From the sequence record NZ_CP013937.1: 18,967 nt of DNA. One strand, given 5' to 3'. This DNA is from a plasmid. Positions 4,183 through 10,700 of the stretch are shown piece by piece. Each line of letters begins with the position of its first letter. Position 1 is the stretch's first letter. A model generated the notes under the pieces. That model worked only from the letters and a program-made list of their open reading frames with translations, had not been told where the DNA came from and did no database searches. The translations under genes and the position numbers were made by a program.

Positions 4183-4796
4183 ATAATCGAGATTAAGTAA
4201 ACCAGACATTGGTCTAGGCGGTCTGAAGCCAATCAGTCCGTGAGTTGATGCGACTGTTGTTGTACCAGTTCACGTACCACTCGACAGACACCCGGACATC
4301 ATCAATGGTCCCGTACTCTTCGTGATAAATCATTTCGCGCTTGATGAGCGAATGGAAGCTCTCGATACGAGCATTATCGTAAGGATGACCCTTACGGGAG
4401 TAAGAGTGATGTATTCCAGAGTTTTGTAATGTTCCTTCGAACAGGCTAGAAGTGTATTGGCTTCCCATGTCGCTGTGAATCATCTTTGGCTTACCCTTGG
4501 CTCTTAGAGCCTTAACTACGACGGATGTTGCGAATTCCTTGGTCATCTCTGGGCTTAGTCCGTATGAGACTACGCGACGCTTTTCTGGGTCATAGACGGT
4601 TGCCAGATAAACCCACTCACGATTCATCAACTGGATGTACGTAATGTCAGTTGCCAGAACGCCACTCAAATCATCCAATCATCCAACTTCTTCATGAGGT
4701 TGGGCTTTTGAGGTGTGTCAGTGGTTGTTGTTGGCTTCTTGTATGACTTCTTGACCATGCGAGATTTGAGATTGAGCTCATTCATGAGTTCCCAAA
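4183..4796 (-). mobile_element. IS3-family insertion sequence, truncated copy 2 (about 0.61 kb, direct repeat of copy 1)
   Basis: Near-identical to 1843-2456 at an offset of 2340 bp. It carries an 8-bp tandem duplication (tcatccaa) at about 4672-4688 that shifts the frame. It lacks the orfA start and the 67-bp left end, and abuts the hsdR remnant. Confidence 0.75.
4214..4678 (-). pseudogene. IS3-family transposase OrfB fragment (rve core)
   Basis: The 154-aa translation is about 97% identical to the copy-1 ORF. It is truncated upstream by the 8-bp duplication. Confidence 0.8.
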
Positions 4797-5992: not shown

Positions 5993-6027
5993 ATCGGTAC
6001 TATAATTGATGTAGTACCGATTTTTTT
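5993..6027 (+). terminator. Rho-independent terminator-like hairpin
   Basis: atcggtacta-taattgatg-tagtaccgat followed by T7. It lies between copy B and the UDG-family gene. Confidence 0.5.
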
Positions 6028-6034
6028 GGAGGTA

Positions 6035-6613
6035 ATGGTTGTGGATTTAAAACAGGAAATAATGGCTGATTCACGTAATGTGTCATTTACAGCGCGCGGA
6101 CTTGAGCCGATTTATATGATTGCACCAACAGTGAAAATATTGATTATTGGCCAAGCACCGGGCGCAGTTGTTGAGCAAACCGGGATTTTGTTCAATGATA
6201 AAAGTGGTGATCGATTACGCGAGTGGATGGGTATCGACCGGACAACCTTCTATGACTCTGGCTTAATTGGTGTGCTACCGATGGATTTCTATTTTCCAGG
6301 CAAGGGGAAGAGGGGTGATTTACCACCACGCAAATTTGTGGCGGGTGAATGGCACCAACGACTACTTGATACGATGCCGGATATCGAATTGATTTTGCTA
6401 GTCGGAAAATATGCGCAACAGCATTATTTGCCAATCAAAGCGAGTGAATCGTTAACCAGTGTGGTACATCGATTCGCGGATTTTGGGCCACGGTATTTGC
6501 CGTTGGCGCACCCATCACCACTCAACAACATCTGGCTTGCCAAGAATCCGTGGTTTGAAACGGACGTCGTGCCCGCACTACAAAAACGTGTCGCAGATAT
6601 CTTAAAGAAATAA
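6035..6613 (+). CDS. Uracil-DNA glycosylase superfamily protein (family 4/5-like)
   Basis: Motif A IIGQAPG and motif B LAHPSPLNN are both present. The start is uncertain: the frame opens at TTG 6026, with in-frame starts at ATG 6035, GTG 6041 and ATG 6062, and GGAGG at 6028-6032. Confidence 0.65.
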   Translation: MVVDLKQEIMADSRNVSFTARGLEPIYMIAPTVKILIIGQAPGAVVEQTGILFNDKSGDRLREWMGIDRTTFYDSGLIGVLPMDFYFPGKGKRGDLPPRKFVAGEWHQRLLDTMPDIELILLVGKYAQQHYLPIKASESLTSVVHRFADFGPRYLPLAHPSPLNNIWLAKNPWFETDVVPALQKRVADILKK

Positions 6614-6645
6614 AACAGGCCGACCTGAGTTATAACCAGGTGAAC

Positions 6646-7129
6646 TGAACCCCAAAAATTGGAGTGAAGTTTAAGCGGCTAACTGGTTGGAAAGATTTCG
6701 GTATTGAACCGGAGTTTTTCCGGCCAGTTTTGTTTCTATCCGCTTGTTGTTGTAGTAATAGACATAGTTAGTTATGGAGGATTTTAATTCGTCATAACTT
6801 TGATAGTGGTTGTTATGCACCGTTCCTACCTTCAAGATGTGGAAGATACTTTCAGCCATTGCGTTATCTAGGCATGTCGCTTTGCGACTCATGCTTTGGA
6901 ACACACGGTTAGTCTTCAACAGTGATATATACTCATAATTTTGATATTGGAAACCTTGGTCAGAGTGAATTGTCATTCGATAACTCGATTCTGGCCTATT
7001 TTGTAGAAGCTCATCTAATGGCTTTGTGACGAACTCGACAGTTGGATGAAGATCGATATTCCAAGTGAGAACCTCACCACTATATACATCAATATAGGCA
7101 GTGAAATAAGCACGTTCTGCCATCGTGCC
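6646..7129 (-). mobile_element. IS3-family IS fragment (right end plus transposase C-terminus); a second degenerate end-copy lies at 7130-7175
   Basis: It begins tgaaccccaaaaattggagtg (TG...). The same tgaaccccaaaattg recurs in direct orientation at 7130. It encloses the rve C-terminal ORF. Confidence 0.65.
6671..7123 (-). pseudogene. IS3-family transposase OrfB C-terminal fragment (a different IS from the 1874/4214 copies)
   Basis: HSDQGFQYQ...MSRKATCLDNAMAESIFHILK...YYNNKRIETKLAGKTPVQYR is the integrase core with the D and E regions. It is 5'-truncated and has no orfA. Confidence 0.8.
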
Positions 7130-7185
7130 TGAACCCCAAAATTGACCAGGAACCAGTTTGGTTGCAAGCTAGTTTTGCAGAATAA

Positions 7186-7243
7186 ATAAAAAGACCCTAT
7201 GGCGGGATGGAAATAATCCGGTTAACCATAGGGTCTTTTTTTT
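7186..7243. terminator. Strong bidirectional rho-independent terminator
   Basis: aaaaagaccctatgg ... ccatagggtcttttttttg: 12-bp stem with A5 before and T8 after. Confidence 0.8.
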
Positions 7244-7246
7244 GTG

Positions 7247-8720
7247 CTATTACGGCGTCATATAAGCGCCTTCTGCGATGGATTACCCACTAAGCGGTGC
7301 AACTTTGACCTCTCAGTGCGTTTCAGAGCAATAAAAAAGCCAGTTATCGTCTTTGGAGGACACATAACCGACTTCAATATATGTTCAGCGTTACTATGGA
7401 GTAGTAAATACTGTTTATTGTCCCAAACCTTGATAGCACGAGGCAATCTTGACTTGAAACCGCTTAATTGATATGATTAACACATCAATTAAATATCAGA
7501 AAGGCGAGTAATAGGAATTGGCGTTCCAATTACAAGCTGTGCCAGATGACCGTAACTCATTTGACACGTTTTTTAACTTCCTAATTCGTATACTCAGTAT
7601 ACCATATTCAGAAGTTGAATCAAGTAGGTAAGCTCCAAACAGGACATAAAAAGTCAGGACTTACCAAGAGGATTCCGTACAAGCGTGTTGATTGAAAGGC
7701 ACGTAACGTATGGAATCCTTTTTTGTACTTATGGAATCATCTGGCAACGGTGCAGACTATCGTTATCAGGTTATCCAGAAATGGCGGGGAACACTGACCC
7801 CGATGATTCAAAAAGGTGCCCAAGCGTGGTGTAATCTCCATCACTAAGGGGTGTGGGGCGTGAAGCGGTCTTTGATACGTCCAAGCCAAATGGCAAAGCC
7901 TAAGTCCGACAAGGATATGGTGAAAACAGAAGTTACTTACCGGTAACAGACAGGGTGGCTAAAAGGCTGTCAGAGGCTCTATACGGGCATTTGACGGCAG
8001 AGGCATGTAAGGCAGTACAACCAGTCGGAAACGGCAACACAGAGGAATGTCAGAGCTGTGGTAGTAAGGTACTGAATCAACGAGATGAGTTTCGATGGTC
8101 GTGGCTTCGTGAGAAGTGGCTATTCAAACAGTTGTCCTAACAGAAGTAAGTTATTTTTTAACTTATTTCTCAATCACAGGGGACAACTGTATCTCCGGAA
8201 CATGACAAGCGCTCAAAGTGGCTGATTTGGTTTGGTTTTTCAATGTTTTTATTGATGAAATCAATTGATTAAGGCCTGCCGGCTGAGGCTTACCAAGTGC
8301 CGGTTGCTACCCTAACGCACGTGATACCAATTGAATCGGCTTCACATCATGTTCAATTGACCAGCGTGCGTTAGGGTAGCGTTTACCCAGTCTCAGCAGA
8401 TCCATTGTTGCGATAGCCAATCCAAGACAGCCCTTAGGAGTTTACCGTAGTGATATCAGACACATGAGGGTACAATAACATTGCGTAGCCAGTATTTTCC
8501 TTGAGAAGGCATTCTAGATTACACATCTGGGGTGTCTTTTTTTGTGGAATCATAACAGGACCTCTGTTCAGTTATGACAATACAACGGAACAGGGGAGAT
8601 ACTGTGAGATGAGACTTTTGCATTGTTTAAATGAATGGTTATTCTTTTTTGTATCGTCTCACGTTTTGTTTAAGTCGTGTCAGTATACCCTTGTTTGATA
8701 CTGATAATGTGGTATCTTAT
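7247..8720 (+). other. About 1.4-kb ORF-poor, GC-richer, hairpin-dense region; candidate large structured RNA and/or plasmid origin (ori or oriT)
   Basis: No ORF longer than 75 aa, and none with an RBS. Visibly higher GC than the flanks. Structural elements include an internal terminator at 7680-7735, a 9-bp IR at 7464-7492, the palindrome aattggcgttccaatt at 7516-7531, nested hairpins cagttgtcc/ggacaactg at 8129-8189, and a roughly 100-nt imperfect hairpin at 8290-8391 with a 16-bp core gctaccctaacgcacg/cgtgcgttagggtagc. Sigma70-like TTGATA-17-TATGGT lies at 8695-8723 in front of the downstream gene. Confidence 0.4.
7680..7735 (+). terminator. Rho-independent terminator inside the noncoding region
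   Basis: ggattccgtac ... gtatggaatcc gives an 11-bp stem with one G-U pair, followed by T6. Confidence 0.55.
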
Positions 8721-8752
8721 GGTTGACGATTCTGATACATGGAGGAAAGATT

Positions 8753-9253
8753 ATGAATAAGTTTGATAATGTCGATGAACTTCTCAAGGAACTTGGTATA
8801 AGTCGTGCCACAGCTTACCGTAGAGCACGCAAATATGATATTTCGTTATCTGATTTGTCTTCGGGTCTCTCAGACGATGAGATTGAGAAATTAAAGAAAC
8901 CACTGCAAAATTCTGGGAAACAAAAGGTTTCAGAAGATGTTGAGAAGTATCGTATCAAAGTTTCGGAGATGTCAGATATTATCGCTAGTCTCGAGACTGA
9001 GATTTCGTCTCAAAAAGAACGATACGACATGGAACGGAAACGAAACGATGAGCGTGAGACTGTTTTGCTTGATAAGTTAGGGGAGGCACAGAATCTGGTT
9101 AGCCAGTCACAGCAACTCCAGCTGATGACAGAGAATAAATTAGCTAAAGTTGAGGAAGAATTGGCCAGTATCAAGATGATTGAGACAGAGACGGAGTCAC
9201 AGACAACCGCTAATGATCCTAAAAGGGGCTGGCTTGCACGATTGTTCGGGTAA
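8753..9253 (+). CDS. N-terminal HTH plus long coiled-coil protein; possibly DUF536-like plasmid replication-associated protein (RepX/OrfX type)
   Basis: RBS GGAGGA lies 6 nt before ATG 8753; the upstream in-frame ATG at 8723 has no RBS. Translation MNKFDNVDELLKELGISRATAYRRARKYDISLS has an HTH, then heptad-rich Glu/Lys sequence, and ends ...KRGWLARLFG. Functional assignment is from memory of the DUF536 C-terminus and is tentative. Confidence 0.6.
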   Translation: MNKFDNVDELLKELGISRATAYRRARKYDISLSDLSSGLSDDEIEKLKKPLQNSGKQKVSEDVEKYRIKVSEMSDIIASLETEISSQKERYDMERKRNDERETVLLDKLGEAQNLVSQSQQLQLMTENKLAKVEEELASIKMIETETESQTTANDPKRGWLARLFG

Positions 9254-9297
9254 GAAACTATTTTCTAATAAATAGACAATACAACAAGGATAATATA

Positions 9298-9477
9298 ATG
9301 AAATTTCTAGCATATACCGTAGCGTGGGCGCTTGTCATCAGTCAGTGGAACGACTTAAACGCATATTATTGGAGTACAGATGTACCAGCACCAATCGGGG
9401 CTATTATTATTACGGTAGTAGCTACCGTGATATTATCTATCGTAACATTTAAGGAATTAACAAAAGGAAAAAAGTAA
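9298..9477 (+). CDS. Hypothetical 59-aa two-TM small membrane protein
   Basis: RBS AAGGA lies 8 nt before ATG 9298. Translation MKFLAYTVAWALVISQWNDLNAYYWSTDVPAPIGAIIITVVATVILSIVTFKELTKGKK. It falls below the ORF-track length cutoff. Confidence 0.45.
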   Translation: MKFLAYTVAWALVISQWNDLNAYYWSTDVPAPIGAIIITVVATVILSIVTFKELTKGKK

Positions 9478-9523
9478 ATGGCACAGAGCACTGTGAGCTG
9501 CTCGAGGACTGAAGTGGTCTACA

Positions 9524-9594
9524 TTGTGAATTTGTCCTTCTATGGCGCTTGTGAAGTGTCCCAGAGGGGCTGAGATGACTTTGTGAATTTGTCC
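9524..9594 (+). repeat. Iteron-like direct repeats TTGTGAA(T/G)T(T/G)GTCC, three copies
   Basis: ttgtgaatttgtcc at 9524-9537, ttgtgaagtgtccc at 9546-9559, ttgtgaatttgtcc at 9581-9594. Spacings are 22 and 35 bp. An adjacent hairpin aggggctga/tcagccctt lies at 9561-9625. Confidence 0.5.
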
Positions 9595-9690
9595 GATTGA
9601 GCAATCCACCGTCAGCCCTTGGTAATTGGGTCACTCAGGATAATGGACATTATGTAAACAACGATTGGTATAGGTGAAGGGGGAGTACCC

Positions 9691-9825
9691 ATGAATGATG
9701 ACGATAAGAAGCTGGACGAACTTGAAACACAACTTGTACCAACACCCGACATTGACCTAAGTGTGCCCGCAGATGAGCCTGAGCCTGATGTTGCTGAATC
9801 AGTAGCTAAGTCGATGGATAAGTGA
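9691..9825 (+). CDS. Hypothetical 44-aa highly acidic peptide
   Basis: Very strong RBS GAAGGGGGAG (9676-9685) lies 5 nt before ATG 9691. Translation MNDDDKKLDELETQLVPTPDIDLSVPADEPEPDVAESVAKSMDK. The antisense 158-aa ORF here is Ser-rich low complexity. Confidence 0.35.
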   Translation: MNDDDKKLDELETQLVPTPDIDLSVPADEPEPDVAESVAKSMDK

Positions 9826-10023
9826 TAGCCATAGAGGCACACCACAGCACCACCAGAGTGTCCAATGACGGATAATCGTATCACCACAGCGTGCCCATAA
9901 TCGGGTGACATAGCATTACCAGTGTCGACACGGAGGTCGATGATAGGCTGATACACGCACCTACCAGAGGGGACACTGTTGACGTGGGTGTCAATGACAT
10001 CTGACATATAATGGTACACAAAT

Positions 10024-10067
10024 AGCCCCGTAGCACTCCTCAGGAACATGCTACGGGGCTTATTTTG
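10024..10067 (+). terminator. Rho-independent terminator
   Basis: agccccgtagc-loop-gctacggggct followed by tattttgg. Confidence 0.7.
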
Positions 10068-10219
10068 GCATTGTGTGTGGTTTGACATATGTATCTGGGA
10101 GTACCGTGGTCAAAAAGTTGATTTGGCATTTTTACAATAAGGAGGACTTCGGGAGTTACTTAGGTAATAAAGGAAGAGATAAGGTAATTCTGAAGTGGTT
10201 GAGTAATAAAAGAAGAAAG

Positions 10220-10245
10220 AATGCTCTTCTGCTATTAGTTTACAG
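10220..10245 (-). repeat. Repeat family core, copy C (aatgctcttctgctattagtttacag)
   Basis: It matches the first 26 bp of copies A and B, then continues gccgtataagcgc. A degenerate relative (tgctatta..cgtcatataagcgcc) lies at 7246-7272 just after the 7186-7243 terminator. Confidence 0.45.
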
Positions 10246-10298
10246 GCCGTATAAGCGCTTTTGAGCGCAATTAATCATCATCCATATAAAATATCGTC

Positions 10299-10371
10299 TA
10301 TAACGAATAAAACGCCATAAAAGGCTTACAAAGAGCTTTTTATGGCGTTTTATTCGTTATAGGTGTTTTTT
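10299..10371. terminator. Exceptionally long, near-perfect 25-bp hairpin followed by a T7 run
   Basis: tataacgaataaaacgccataaaag - 12-nt loop - cttttatggcgttttattcgttata (one bulged T), then ggtgttttttt. Confidence 0.65.
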
Positions 10372-10646
10372 TGCGCATATTAAAGTTAATTCCTTACTAA
10401 CCAAGAACATTTTATCTACATACGAGTTTAACGTATCAATTAACAATCAAATCACTAGTCTATTCTGAATAATCATATGACTCAAAACAGTAATGACTAA
10501 TCATTTTATTAAATGACCATCGGATCACAAAATAATGGCATTAAATCTTAAAAGCTTGAATTTACAAGCAATTATTTGCCAGCATCATAACCGAATGAAA
10601 TGAGGACAATGCGCACTTACACTCTTGACACCTGTCAATAGTAGTT

Positions 10647-10673
10647 TGCCAAGGATTTCATCCTTGGTTTTTC
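10647..10673 (+). terminator. Small rho-independent terminator-like hairpin; preceded by palindrome TTGACACCTGTCAA at 10625-10638
   Basis: ccaaggat-ttc-atccttgg then ttttt. The 14-bp palindrome contains a -35-like TTGACA. Confidence 0.45.
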
Positions 10674-10700
10674 CTTGTATCAGAAGGCTAACGCCAACTA

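Follow-up and report, generated by a model that had tools for sequence, protein, structure and literature searches.

The segment studied here, positions 7247-8720, belongs to a plasmid sequence of 18,967 nucleotides (NZ_CP013937.1; this whole stretch is referred to as the window) and lies between a hairpin on its left and the gene of an HTH/coiled-coil protein on its right (Table 1). The hairpin, with 18-nt arms (7185-7202 and 7226-7243) that are 94% complementary and followed by a T-run, is the left-edge terminator proposed in the first-pass annotation. Conserved in window-type copies, it forms the left boundary of the conserved block. The conserved functional unit itself spans ~7331-8545, with 7247-7330 and 8546-8720 as its flanks.

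Table 1. Predicted features in and next to the segment, in window positions
Feature	Position	Strand	Basis
Hairpin with A-run before and T-run after, terminator-like on both strands	7185-7243		Inverted repeat
Predicted intrinsic terminator, hairpin then UUUUUUAUUG	7331-7375	-	Inspection
Sense promoter, TTGACT-17-TG-n-TATGAT	7449-7477	+	Consensus match; predicted start near A7484
Palindrome TTAATTGATATG/CACATCAATTAA over -10 and transcript start	7464-7494		Sequence
Large structured ncRNA (predicted)	7484-8543	+	Constant length, covariation, fold z
Predicted antisense RNA, ~95 nt	7493-7589	-	Promoter and sequence
SL1 (7503-7538, loop UUGGCG) and SL2 (7539-7567)	7503-7567	+	Covarying stems, helices 2-3
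Antisense promoter, TTGATT-16-TGgTATACT	7596-7623	-	Consensus match
Attenuator, long hairpin then U6	7666-7724	+	Covarying stems, helices 8 and 9
3' domain, ending with invariant TGCGATAGCCA	8263-8427	+	Shared with type B RNA
G-U-rich hairpin and U7, predicted to terminate the large RNA of this subtype	8503-8543	+	MFE fold
HTH/coiled-coil protein, 166 aa	8753-9253	+	Family alignment; own promoter 8695-8723
Second conserved noncoding block, three TTGTGAA-core direct repeats (9521, 9547, 9578)	9487-9687		

Consistent with the earlier view that the segment holds no credible ORF, no frame in 7247-8720 contained an ORF of more than 75 aa. A decayed rep pseudogene, which had been considered as a counter-explanation, finds no support: the six-frame translation gave no Pfam match at E ≤ 0.1, the variable columns of the alignment showed no 3-nt periodicity (p = 0.6), and frame-breaking indels occur throughout the segment between copies. 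The segment had also been described as clearly richer in GC than its surroundings. This is only partly true, because its GC content of 0.40 to 0.47 exceeds that of the whole window (∼0.38) but the left flank at 6000-6800 is equally rich (0.44 to 0.485).

Signatures of a conventional origin were scarce. We found no tandem repeats, iterons, or direct-repeat families within 7247-8720, the iteron-like repeats that might mark an iteron-type theta origin lying only outside, at 9521-9594. DnaA boxes were not enriched (3 matches versus 6.5 expected in the window), and GC skew gave no clear origin signal. None of the ORFs in the window contained Rep_1, Rep_2, Rep_trans, or a relaxase, and neither annotation nor Pfam assigned a Rep domain to any of them. 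Searching the whole window with cmscan against Rfam 15 yielded 0 matches at gathering score. Lowering the threshold to E ≤ 5 for 7100-8800 returned five chance-level matches (13.8 to 23.4 bits versus gathering scores of 40 to 114), three of which fell on the hairpin at 7185-7243. Even at this threshold the covariance models of GOLLD, ROOL, and ctRNAs, the known classes suggested at first, remained without a match.

A conserved structured RNA on the + strand

Our comparison set comprised 25 homologous copies of 72 to 99% identity. Two invariant anchors, CAATTAAATATYAG (5') and TGCGATAGCCART (3'), lay 923 to 942 nt apart in the 15 full-length copies measured, including one copy whose center is <70% identical. 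Covariation analysis, proposed at the outset as a check, was clearly positive: among 175 predicted pairs, 50 were changed on both sides, compared to 18 ± 3 in shuffles (0 of 500 reached 50) and 7 to 16 in slid controls. Paired cells amounted to 97.3% on the + strand versus 83.9% when read as the - strand, and the predicted pairs contained 385 G-U cells versus 17 A-C cells. This asymmetry and the compensatory changes indicate that it is an RNA (or one specific single strand) that acts, and we regard a conserved structured RNA on the + strand as near-certain.

Folding energies differed between the strands in the same direction. The + strand of 7731-8548 folded at -280 kcal/mol, versus -237 ± 7 kcal/mol for shuffles (z = -6.1), whereas the - strand reached only -224 kcal/mol (z = -2.6); the 5' part, 7484-7730, had a fold z of -5.9. 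The conserved body of the predicted RNA runs from 7484 to ∼8425 and extends in this subtype to the terminator at 8503-8543. We thus infer from the sequence a tightly folded transcript of ∼0.94 to 1.06 kb that probably has its own antisense regulator.

Several of the individual hairpins noted previously were recovered. The nested hairpins are present at 8131-8189, with helices 33 and 34 kept in 14 to 15 of 16 homologues, and the 16-bp perfect core of the large 3' hairpin was confirmed at 8306-8321/8365-8380; this helix, which has a competitor at 8297-8301/8336-8340, tolerates G-U in other copies. Although this copy has the apical caattgaa/ttcaattg stem, homologues such as N17 p2 do not conserve it. 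The 3' domain also occurs in a "type B" RNA, carried by Weissella confusa N17 p3, by W. cibaria KACC 11862, and as the second copy on pCBA3612-01 (nhmmer E values of 7e-14 to 3e-9); RNAalifold of types A and B together recovered only 12 pairs and was uninformative, and conservation of helices across the types was judged by inspection. The terminator at 8503-8543 is kept in N17 p2, CYLB30, N17 p1, and M2, and JW15 has a different perfect hairpin and T-run in its place.

Relatives outside this set were few. In the plasmid collection, distant blastn matches were confined to Weissella. Short conserved patterns searched against IMG/VR gave nearly exclusively chance matches, one pattern giving none, and true homologues were sifted by blastn; two metagenome matches were rejected as homologues, being chance matches inside a gene. 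In genome contigs, a first pattern had no match and a second led to one divergent locus.

Convergent promoters, attenuator, and variable loops

The regulatory anatomy of the 5' region, consisting of the sense promoter, the antisense promoter, and an attenuator with alternative pairings, had been missed in the first-pass annotation. The sense promoter is the best match in the region (10/12, extended -10), and every copy, that of W. hellenica included, retains its TTGAC and -10. The symmetry of the palindrome that overlies its -10 is maintained by paired changes in N17 p1 and M2 (TTAATTGGTAC/GTACCAATTAA). We considered this palindrome as an operator covarying with the HTH protein and rejected it, because the CYLB30 and N17 p1 proteins are near-identical but their palindromes differ.

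In the opposite direction, the TTGATT -35 and the extended -10 of the antisense promoter are kept in 11/11 distinct variants, with variation in the spacer and a -10 changed to TACAAT or TATAAT in some of them. The predicted antisense RNA would start ∼7 nt past the - strand -10, span the first ∼100 nt of the sense RNA, and end with the complement of SL1 followed by UUUCUGAUAUUU; its prediction as an ∼100-nt complement of the sense 5' end comes from the conserved convergent promoters and the terminator-like end. Further to the left, at 7331-7375, the + strand reads CAATAAAAAAG followed by a hairpin. CAATAAAAAAG is invariant in A1, the stems of the W. hellenica and L193 types differ but remain complementary, and the element forms the left limit of conservation among divergent copies. 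It may serve as a back-stop for leftward (antisense) transcription.

SL1 and SL2 are the predicted targets of the antisense RNA and candidate incompatibility determinants. The SL2 loop had an entropy of 1.19, more than the 0.50 of the RNA as a whole, and took 8 forms among 16 copies; four copies carry the SL1 loop in inverted form (CGCCAA). In W. confusa N17, a type-B plasmid coexists with two type-A plasmids, p1 and p2, whose SL1 and SL2 loops both differ. With SL2 as the most variable part of the RNA and SL1 inverted in some copies, the loops appear to behave like incompatibility determinants.

The internal terminator reported previously corresponds to a terminator-like hairpin followed by T6 (7719-7724), but its position was slightly off (7680-7735), the arms lying at 7666-7680 and 7708-7722 and enclosing an inner stem. 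Hairpin and U-run were present in every copy. Two pairings could compete with this structure or with SL2. One is an anti-terminator pairing of 7557-7571 with 7681-7695; the other is a long-range helix (helix 4) of 7541-7549 with 7737-7745, in which 4 pairs are changed on both sides. The anti-terminator duplex, scored by per-sequence duplex folding since MAFFT columns put variants out of register, had energies of -13 to -17 kcal/mol, with a modest shuffle z of -0.5 to -3.5. The W. hellenica and L169 types preserve the duplex with sequences of their own.

This arrangement resembles the copy control systems of pIP501, pAMβ1, and pT181, which are likewise Gram positive and have a countertranscript over the leader and, ∼200 nt in, a terminator hairpin with a U-run and mutually exclusive pairings. 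At the sequence level, a predicted countertranscript, a leader terminator, and alternative pairings are all found here. Unlike those leaders, however, which precede a rep ORF that the attenuator controls, this one is followed by ∼700 nt of conserved noncoding structure that has no ORF, periodicity, or Pfam match, and no Rep gene is present.

Rep-less carriers and a possible RNA-dependent replicon

The RNA module is shared by seven plasmids or phage-plasmids, none with an annotated Rep. All 6/6 complete carriers lack one, a count that is partly annotation based, as PLSDB gene tables omit pseudogenes and genes crossing the record start. The module is also the only DNA of the 10.3-kb pCYLB30-6 that is common to all six other elements. 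Of eight carrier plasmids, seven are typed as nonmobilizable. Phage-plasmid carriers have phage replication genes (a DUF5906 protein and AAA ATPases), and the RNA is located there after the lysis genes. Tiny plasmids of 2.7 to 5.2 kb encode a homologous HTH protein next to a 0.9- to 1.6-kb ORF-free region and have no Rep. Since the RNA was found only in Weissella elements without an initiator gene, it is probably an undescribed RNA-based replication and copy control unit. The general idea of a large structured ncRNA and/or plasmid origin is supported by strong covariation and by the position of the region as the only one common to the Rep-less plasmid set.

The HTH protein gene always adjoins the RNA. 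The protein combines an N-terminal HTH with a single helix of ∼97 residues (coiled coil), ends in a conserved tail, KKGFWARLF, shows weak full-length matches to NCBIfam NF038291, and was modeled by AlphaFold with a pLDDT of 84. A fold search with this model found no significant match (best E, 0.68), the top matches being the DNA-binding domains of pSK1 Par and RacA. We consider it more likely to be an accessory protein, acting in partition or regulation, than an initiator. The repeat block downstream, whose TTGTGAA repeats are conserved in five elements, is a candidate binding site for it and could be a centromere, an operator, or a rival origin.

The same protein points to replicons that have been tested in Leuconostoc. 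A profile search retrieved Leuconostoc proteins with E values of 2e-12 and 4e-12. While tblastn with the window protein found one plasmid only, due to the low-complexity filter acting on the coiled coil, the reciprocal search with a Leuconostoc homologue as the query led back to the Weissella carriers. The pTXL1 HTH gene appeared truncated, an assignment that we set aside, as the gene more likely crosses the record start and is omitted by PLSDB. Like the Weissella carriers, these replicons (MOB-suite rep_cluster_1977 and 1953) combine a homologous HTH/coiled-coil protein with the lack of a canonical Rep and with an ∼0.9-kb ORF-free region containing convergent promoters, an ∼100-nt antisense unit, and a hairpin with a U-run ∼200 nt in. 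Read by eye, pCC3 and pCB42 have the same layout of convergent promoters, terminator, and attenuator, and in pCC3 the antisense layout includes a called terminator. Their structured unit differs in being shorter (∼650 nt) and directed away from the HTH gene, and a type-A profile run in nhmmer at E ≤ 10 had no match in pTXL1, pCC3, or pFMBL1. The link is accordingly suggested by the homologous protein and the layout. In pCB42, a 1,587-bp region with a noncoding stretch is responsible for replication, and one C→T change in a noncoding inverted repeat raises the copy number ∼30-fold (PMC4714500). As far as we could find, no RNA has been described for the pTXL1, pCB42, pCC3, and pFMBL1 replicons.

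Taken together, we lean, with modest confidence, toward reading the segment as the core of a replicon that depends on RNA, not on Rep, and whose copy number is controlled by antisense RNA and attenuation. The promoter at 7449-7477 would strongly transcribe the + strand into a structured ncRNA of ∼0.94 to 1.06 kb, and the convergent promoter at 7623-7596 would yield an ∼95-nt antisense RNA against its first ∼100 nt, covering SL1 and SL2. Three pairings are open to SL2: it could fold on itself, bind the inner strand of the 7666-7724 terminator hairpin, or bind the sequence just past the terminator. Antisense RNA bound to SL1/SL2 would leave the terminator free to form, so that most transcripts would end at ∼240 nt, while escaping transcripts would continue into the ∼700-nt body and the 3' domain. 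The RNA body might then act as a preprimer or an origin-opening RNA with which host enzymes alone start theta replication, by analogy with ColE1 RNA II, the marine RNA-based Vibrio plasmids, and the non-RepA mycobacterial prophages, and copy number and incompatibility would depend on the antisense loops. In this scheme, the synthesis of both RNAs, the attenuation, and the role of the RNA in driving replication are inferred. A broader proposition, toward which we are nearly evenly disposed but slightly skeptical, is that plasmids and phage-plasmids of Lactobacillaceae (Weissella, Leuconostoc, possibly Levilactobacillus) replicate without an initiator protein by means of an ornate RNA initiator or preprimer of ∼0.65 to 1.0 kb that is gated by antisense RNA and attenuator and whose loops define incompatibility.

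If this is true, an elaborate, covariation-supported RNA lies at the heart of Rep-less plasmids of food-grade lactic acid bacteria and represents an independently evolved class of RNA-based replicons in Gram-positive bacteria as well as a large RNA class absent from Rfam. It would explain "Rep-less" vectors such as pTXL1 and pCB42 and provide a mechanism for these and pFMBL1, replicons that already serve as cloning vectors, including the copy-up mutation in noncoding DNA. It would further account for Weissella plasmids left untyped by replicon-typing tools, and loop inversion and hypervariability would show how near-identical replicons coexist in one cell.

Alternative readings and comparison with known systems

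The most serious alternative, although in our view an unlikely one, is that the ornate RNA is real but has a job other than replication, as a ROOL/GOLLD-like scaffold or nanocage or as a regulator of the phage-plasmid lifestyle, while the HTH protein initiates replication at the TTGTGAA repeats at 9521-9594. An initiator of this kind, a small protein acting at an origin of its own, is conceivable because some records label the protein a "replication initiation protein" and iteron-like repeats, conserved in five elements, lie downstream of its gene. The size and complexity of the RNA and its position after phage-plasmid lysis genes also resemble the occurrence of ROOL and GOLLD, which are large, intricate ncRNAs of Lactobacillales mobile elements and prophages. 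However, their models do not match, and neither antisense/attenuator control nor a link to Rep-less plasmids is known for them, whereas such control, combined with loops that differ between coresident plasmids, is a hallmark of copy and incompatibility control. The repeat block was moreover not detectable in the W. hellenica carrier, while the RNA is universal, and the protein (150 to 170 aa) resembles, nonsignificantly, segregation proteins of the pSK1 Par or RacA type and no known initiator. In Lactococcus garvieae pGL1, a canonical repB is followed by a gene resembling that of one of the pTXL1 proteins, to which a part in replication control is putatively assigned (PMC3387028), and this may also speak against an initiator role.

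Less probable still is that the transcript is a long structured 5' leader of the downstream operon (the HTH gene and small ORFs), attenuated as in pIP501, pT181, and pAMβ1. The antisense and attenuator layout would fit, and other subtypes seem to lend themselves to it: the W. hellenica type has an RBS and a 115-aa ORF directly past the 3' anchor, and type B has an RBS and a small acidic protein, followed by the HTH gene without a terminator between. In the window subtype, however, RNA and gene are kept apart by a terminator that is conserved (8503-8543) and by a promoter of the gene's own (8695-8723), and the RNA-like unit of Leuconostoc (pCC3, pCB42) and W. koreensis is oriented away from the HTH gene. 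The ∼700 nt of covarying, constant-length structure past the attenuator would also be superfluous for attenuation.

We consider it highly improbable that the segment is DNA-level debris or a DNA site (decayed rep, sso, or oriT): it does occupy the place, upstream of an HTH accessory gene, where theta replicons of lactic acid bacteria usually carry repA or repB, and is rich in inverted repeats, but its preservation over all 25 copies with compensatory changes and strand-specific structure, its lack of coding traces, the lack of an RCR Rep or relaxase, the mostly nonmobilizable carriers, and a length of 940 nt, far beyond the 200 to 300 nt of an sso or oriT, all argue against this, including the sso/oriT class suggested earlier. 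Equally improbable is a type I toxin-antitoxin locus in which toxin mRNA and antisense RNA mediate postsegregational killing, since, although its promoters converge and overlap and its 5' region is structured, as in hok/sok and pAD1 par, there is no conserved small ORF (the leader has 1- and 2-nt indels, and the 20- to 40-aa ORFs of the window are lost in homologues) and the covarying ∼940-nt RNA would be left unexplained.

To our knowledge, RNA-initiated plasmid replication is textbook matter for ColE1 only, to which marine Vibrio plasmids and mycobacterial plasmid-prophages have since been added. The RNA-dependent replicon that we favor would share with ColE1 (RNA II/RNA I) the absence of a plasmid initiator, a long structured sense RNA from a strong promoter with a predicted ∼100-nt antisense RNA at its 5' end, and antisense stem-loops whose loops would set incompatibility. 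It differs in having no sequence or Rfam (RNAI) similarity, a host among the Gram-positive Lactobacillaceae, a sense RNA about twice as long, and an intrinsic-terminator attenuator, which ColE1 lacks; no Rom-like gene is present here. In ColE1-type replication, the sense RNA enters an R-loop at the origin, where RNase H cleaves it and Pol I extends it.

Minimal Rep-less theta replicons of 1.1 to 1.3 kb that are rich in dyad symmetries have been described for pLS20 (class E) and pTE15 (PMC4490491, PMC9743546). Our distant blastn search of plasmids revealed no sequence similarity to them, and the AT-rich iteron and DnaA-box region of pTE15 is absent here. The MRB plasmids of Vibrionaceae (pB1067) have RNA-based, Rep-free origins in which an antisense RNA I of 68 nt is the incompatibility determinant (PMC3035462), and extrachromosomal mycobacteriophage prophages have non-RepA transcribed RNA origins after the virion structural genes (PMC7157519). 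These origins are unrelated in sequence and host, their sense RNAs are shorter (at least 465 nt in MRB plasmids, with an ori of 400 to 500 bp in the phages), and neither an attenuator nor an ornate covarying structure is known from them. They are nevertheless alike in being ORF-free and transcribed without need of a Rep, and the placement of the mycobacteriophage RNA origin after the virion genes of a plasmid-prophage recurs in N17 p1 and M2.

A conserved structured RNA on the + strand

The segment at 7247-8720 has a hairpin and T-run on its left (arms at 7185-7202 and 7226-7243) and a gene starting at 8753 on its right. It had been called ORF-free in the first-pass annotation, and we indeed found no ORF of more than 75 aa in any frame, no Pfam match to its six-frame translation, and no three-base periodicity in the variable alignment columns (p = 0.6). 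The hairpins described there were all present (7666-7722 plus T6; 8131-8189; the 16-bp core at 8306-8321/8365-8380). Its GC content is higher than that around it only in part, since the left flank is just as GC-rich. On the - strand are three truncated fragments of IS3-type transposases in which only rve domains remain (1874-2488, 4214-4678, and 6671-7123); the last stops immediately to the left of the RNA module, the conserved part of the segment, and the left flank is therefore a recombination scar.

Folding of the segment is strand-asymmetric and far above chance: positions 7731-8548 fold to -280 kcal/mol as the + strand (z -6.1) versus -224 kcal/mol as the - strand (z -2.6), and the first 247 nt reach a z of -5.9. 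In a 16-sequence alignment, RNAalifold predicted 175 pairs. Fifty of these were changed on both sides, compared to 18±3 in shuffled controls (0 of 500 reached 50) and 7 to 16 in slid controls. The covariation score was 0.19 (0.035 to 0.048 in slid controls), and 97.3% of cells were paired, versus 92.1% after shuffling and 83.9% when the alignment was read as the - strand. Since G-U cells outnumbered A-C cells (385 versus 17), the structure exists on the + strand only. Deriving the structure from the alignment on which it was then scored inflates these figures somewhat. Even so, both kinds of control (shuffled and slid) and the G-U bias speak unambiguously, and paired changes of this kind mark a functional RNA, not a pseudogene or a site acting as DNA. 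We are nearly certain that the segment encodes a functional structured RNA, bearing out its initial listing as a candidate large structured ncRNA.

The suggested membership in the GOLLD or ROOL class did not survive comparison with the Rfam 15 covariance models. Nothing in the window matched at gathering thresholds, and E ≤ 5 over 7100-8800 yielded five noise-level matches only, three of them on the boundary hairpin; GOLLD, ROOL, known ctRNAs, group II introns, and the other curated Rfam families are therefore excluded. The segment contains no tandem or direct-repeat families and no DnaA-box enrichment, and neither an RCR Rep nor a relaxase is encoded in the window.

Predicted antisense control and hypervariable loops

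Two conserved convergent promoters precede and oppose the 5' part of the RNA (see the table). The sense RNA is predicted to start near 7484. The opposing promoter, whose variants change the spacer or turn the -10 box into TACAAT or TATAAT, would produce an antisense RNA of ∼95 nt that starts near 7589, is complementary to the stem-loops SL1 and SL2, and ends with the SL1 complement followed by UUUCUGAUAUUU.

Coordinates of the RNA module, its neighboring repeat block, and the related type C promoters
Feature	Position	Strand	Description
Sense promoter	7449-7477	+	TTGACT-17-TGnTATGAT; best promoter match of the region, kept in all copies
SL1 (predicted antisense target)	7503-7538	+	5' stem-loop
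SL2 (predicted antisense target)	7539-7567	+	5' stem-loop
Antisense promoter	7623-7596	-	TTGATT-16-TGgTATACT; kept in 11/11 distinct variants
Attenuator hairpin and U-run	7666-7724	+	In every copy, with covarying stems
RNA 3' end, this subtype	8503-8543	+	G-U-rich hairpin plus U7
Conserved non-coding block after HTH gene	9487-9687		Three TTGTGAA-core direct repeats (9521, 9547, 9578)
Type C sense promoter (pCC3/pCB42)		Opposite to HTH gene	TTGTCA-17-TGcTATACT
Type C antisense promoter	∼120 nt downstream of type C sense promoter		TTTACT-17-TATAAT

The strands of SL2 are contested by three pairings, the first being SL2 itself. In the second, the SL2 3' arm (7557-7571) pairs with the inner terminator strand at 7681-7695 (ΔG of -13 to -17 kcal/mol), a duplex kept in the W. 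hellenica and L169 types despite quite different sequences. In the third, the 5' arm (7541-7549) pairs with 7737-7745, immediately beyond the terminator; this duplex corresponds to helix 4 of the pair count, in which both sides changed in four pairs. Judged from sequence, these competing pairings would follow the logic of antisense-driven transcriptional attenuation, with antisense binding presumably favoring termination. The attenuator 3' arm, ACGTATGGAATC (7706-7717), is duplicated right after the U-run as ACTTATGGAATC (7727-7738), so that in read-through transcripts the 5' arm has a second potential partner; the W. hellenica type lacks this duplication. At the RNA 3' end, pCBA3612-01 carries another perfect hairpin in place of the terminator.

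Variability is concentrated in the loops. Column entropy was 1.19 in the SL2 loop, compared to 0.43 in its stem and 0.50 over the whole RNA, and eight different SL2 loops occur among 16 copies. Most copies have UUGGCG as the SL1 loop, and four have its exact inversion, CGCCAA; this change (window 7517-7524, TTGGCG versus CGCCAA; loci L001 and L006) separates otherwise near-identical copies and looks like a hairpin-loop inversion that would switch antisense specificity. W. confusa N17 harbors two elements with the window's RNA type (type A) in one cell, p1 (SL1 UUGGCG, SL2 AAGCAG) and p2 (SL1 CGCCAA, SL2 CACGAC), plus a third plasmid of another RNA type. Such a pattern is what antisense-RNA copy control predicts, the loops apparently behaving like incompatibility determinants.

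Carriers and related RNA types

Megablast and blastn matched the segment to only eight Weissella plasmids (79 to 99% identity) and to no deposited phage. Two of the eight are in fact complete phage-plasmids of siphovirus-like type, W. confusa N17 p1 and W. cibaria M2 unnamed1; in each, the segment comes after the lysin gene. Pattern scans of IMG/VR and metagenomes added further copies, and nhmmer brought the total to 25. Homology spans ∼7139 to ∼8576, beyond which downstream sequences differ among copies. The RNA unit is bracketed by the invariant motifs CAATTAAATATYAG at 7486 and TGCGATAGCCART ending at 8421; in the 15 full-length copies that were measured, their distance is 923 to 942 nt. 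This holds even for M2, in which divergence puts the central 490 nt beyond the reach of blastn.

None of six complete carriers (10.3, 17.4, 30.9, 31.0, 31.4, and 31.6 kb) has an annotated Rep, and no window ORF contains a Rep domain. Within 10.3-kb pCYLB30-6, the RNA module contains the only DNA that also occurs in all six other elements. Besides this module and the repeat block, the sole widely common DNA is a piece of ∼80 bp (pCYLB30-6 9628-9706) located past the GIY-YIG nuclease gene; five of the six elements compared with pCYLB30-6 have it, and it may serve as a recombination (res/dif-like) site. A gene of the uracil-DNA glycosylase family precedes the RNA module in the window (6026-6613), in N17 p2, and in pCBA3612-01, occurs elsewhere on N17 p1, and may be a recurrent companion of the plasmid backbone.

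The RNA 3' domain (8263-8427) recurs, by nhmmer, in a second RNA type (type B) of W. confusa N17 p3 (3,741 bp), W. cibaria KACC 11862, and pCBA3612-01, which has a type A copy plus a 5'-truncated type B copy (27114-27807). Type B (∼950 nt; loci L216 and L212) has this domain alone in common with the window RNA and repeats its order of parts: promoter, A-rich 5' end, SL1, and a terminator-like hairpin ∼200 nt in, then a purine-rich body and the 3' domain ending TTGCGATAGC. W. koreensis pWKW_2, with the 5' motif and an SL1 of identical UUGGCG loop, is a candidate type D.

The gene always following the RNA module (8753-9253) encodes a family of 150- to 185-aa HTH proteins. Using a Leuconostoc member as the query, tblastn detected it in 35 plasmids of Weissella, Leuconostoc, and a few lactobacilli, among them very small ones without a canonical Rep: pTXL1 (2,665 bp), pCC3, pCB42, pFMBL1, pWconfE392-2, and L. 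brevis pA156_3. In pCC3 and pCB42 (type C), an ORF-free region beside the gene shows the same convergent layout on the opposite strand, with a terminator called for a ∼100-nt antisense RNA, a hairpin plus U-run ∼200 nt into the sense transcript, and better folding of the sense strand (z -7.4 versus -4.9). No nucleotide similarity between types A and C was found by nhmmer; their apparent link is the protein family and the layout. In pCB42, a 1,587-bp region containing the ORF-free stretch was reported to be responsible for replication, and a single C-to-T change in a non-coding inverted repeat raised the copy number ∼30-fold (PMC4714500).

A candidate replicon and its alternatives

We consider the module to be probably the replication and copy-control unit. 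The best-supported reading, toward which we lean, is a Rep-independent, RNA-dependent replicon with antisense and attenuation copy control. The long structured RNA would act as initiator or pre-primer, the antisense RNA and attenuator would set the copy number, the loops would determine incompatibility, and the HTH protein with the TTGTGAA repeats would serve segregation or regulation. Its fuller version, in which Lactobacillaceae plasmids and phage-plasmids without an initiator protein use an ornate RNA, gated by antisense and attenuator, as initiator or pre-primer, is offered more tentatively. ColE1 is a precedent for an RNA-based replicon. Marine RNA-based Vibrio plasmids likewise encode RNA I (68 nt) and RNA II (at least 465 nt) and no Rep (PMC3035462), while the Rep-less theta replicons of Firmicutes pLS20 and pTE15 have an unexplained mechanism (PMC4490491, PMC9743546). 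Extrachromosomal mycobacteriophage prophages have non-RepA origins that, like the module here, are placed after virion genes (PMC7157519). RNA-based replicons are a known kind, and Leuconostoc replicons already serve as vector backbones; a description of the window's RNA was found neither in Rfam nor in the searched literature. Should the replication role fail, the RNA would instead represent an unclassified class of large RNAs carried by mobile elements.

It is less likely, though a serious alternative, that the ornate RNA has another function and that the HTH protein initiates replication at the TTGTGAA repeats. The repeats (spacing of 27 to 30 bp, span 9521-9594), found conserved in five elements, are the likely binding site of the protein. 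After them come a -10-like box and then the RBS and ATG of an ORF of 44 aa (9691-9825); the block appears iteron- or centromere-like. The family gives weak full-length matches to the NCBIfam "plasmid replication DNA-binding protein" (E of about 1e-3). Its top fold matches, non-significant and spanning DNA-binding domains only, are the pSK1 Par partition protein and RacA. At full length, these two proteins consist of an HTH, a long coiled coil, and a tail, an architecture that the family resembles with its N-terminal HTH, one ∼97-residue helix, and conserved KKGFWARLF tail. We read the HTH protein as an accessory factor for segregation or regulation. The nearly invariant C-terminal end, KKGFWARLF(G/K), is modeled as a short amphipathic helix that follows a linker predicted with low confidence, and it could be a membrane or host-factor tether.

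It is improbable that the RNA is a giant attenuated leader of the downstream operon: in the window subtype, a terminator and a separate promoter stand before the gene, and in Leuconostoc and W. koreensis the RNA unit and the gene are divergently oriented. A pseudogene, sso, or oriT is hardly compatible with the + strand pairing signature, and a type I toxin-antitoxin locus is rated equally low because there is no conserved small ORF.

Farther downstream of the candidate replicon, the ORF-poor interval 9253-10700 contains an inverted repeat at 10288-10372 (39-nt arms, 87% complementary, 7-nt loop) with T-runs on both sides, a bidirectional terminator-like element kept in N17 p2 and pCYLB30-6.
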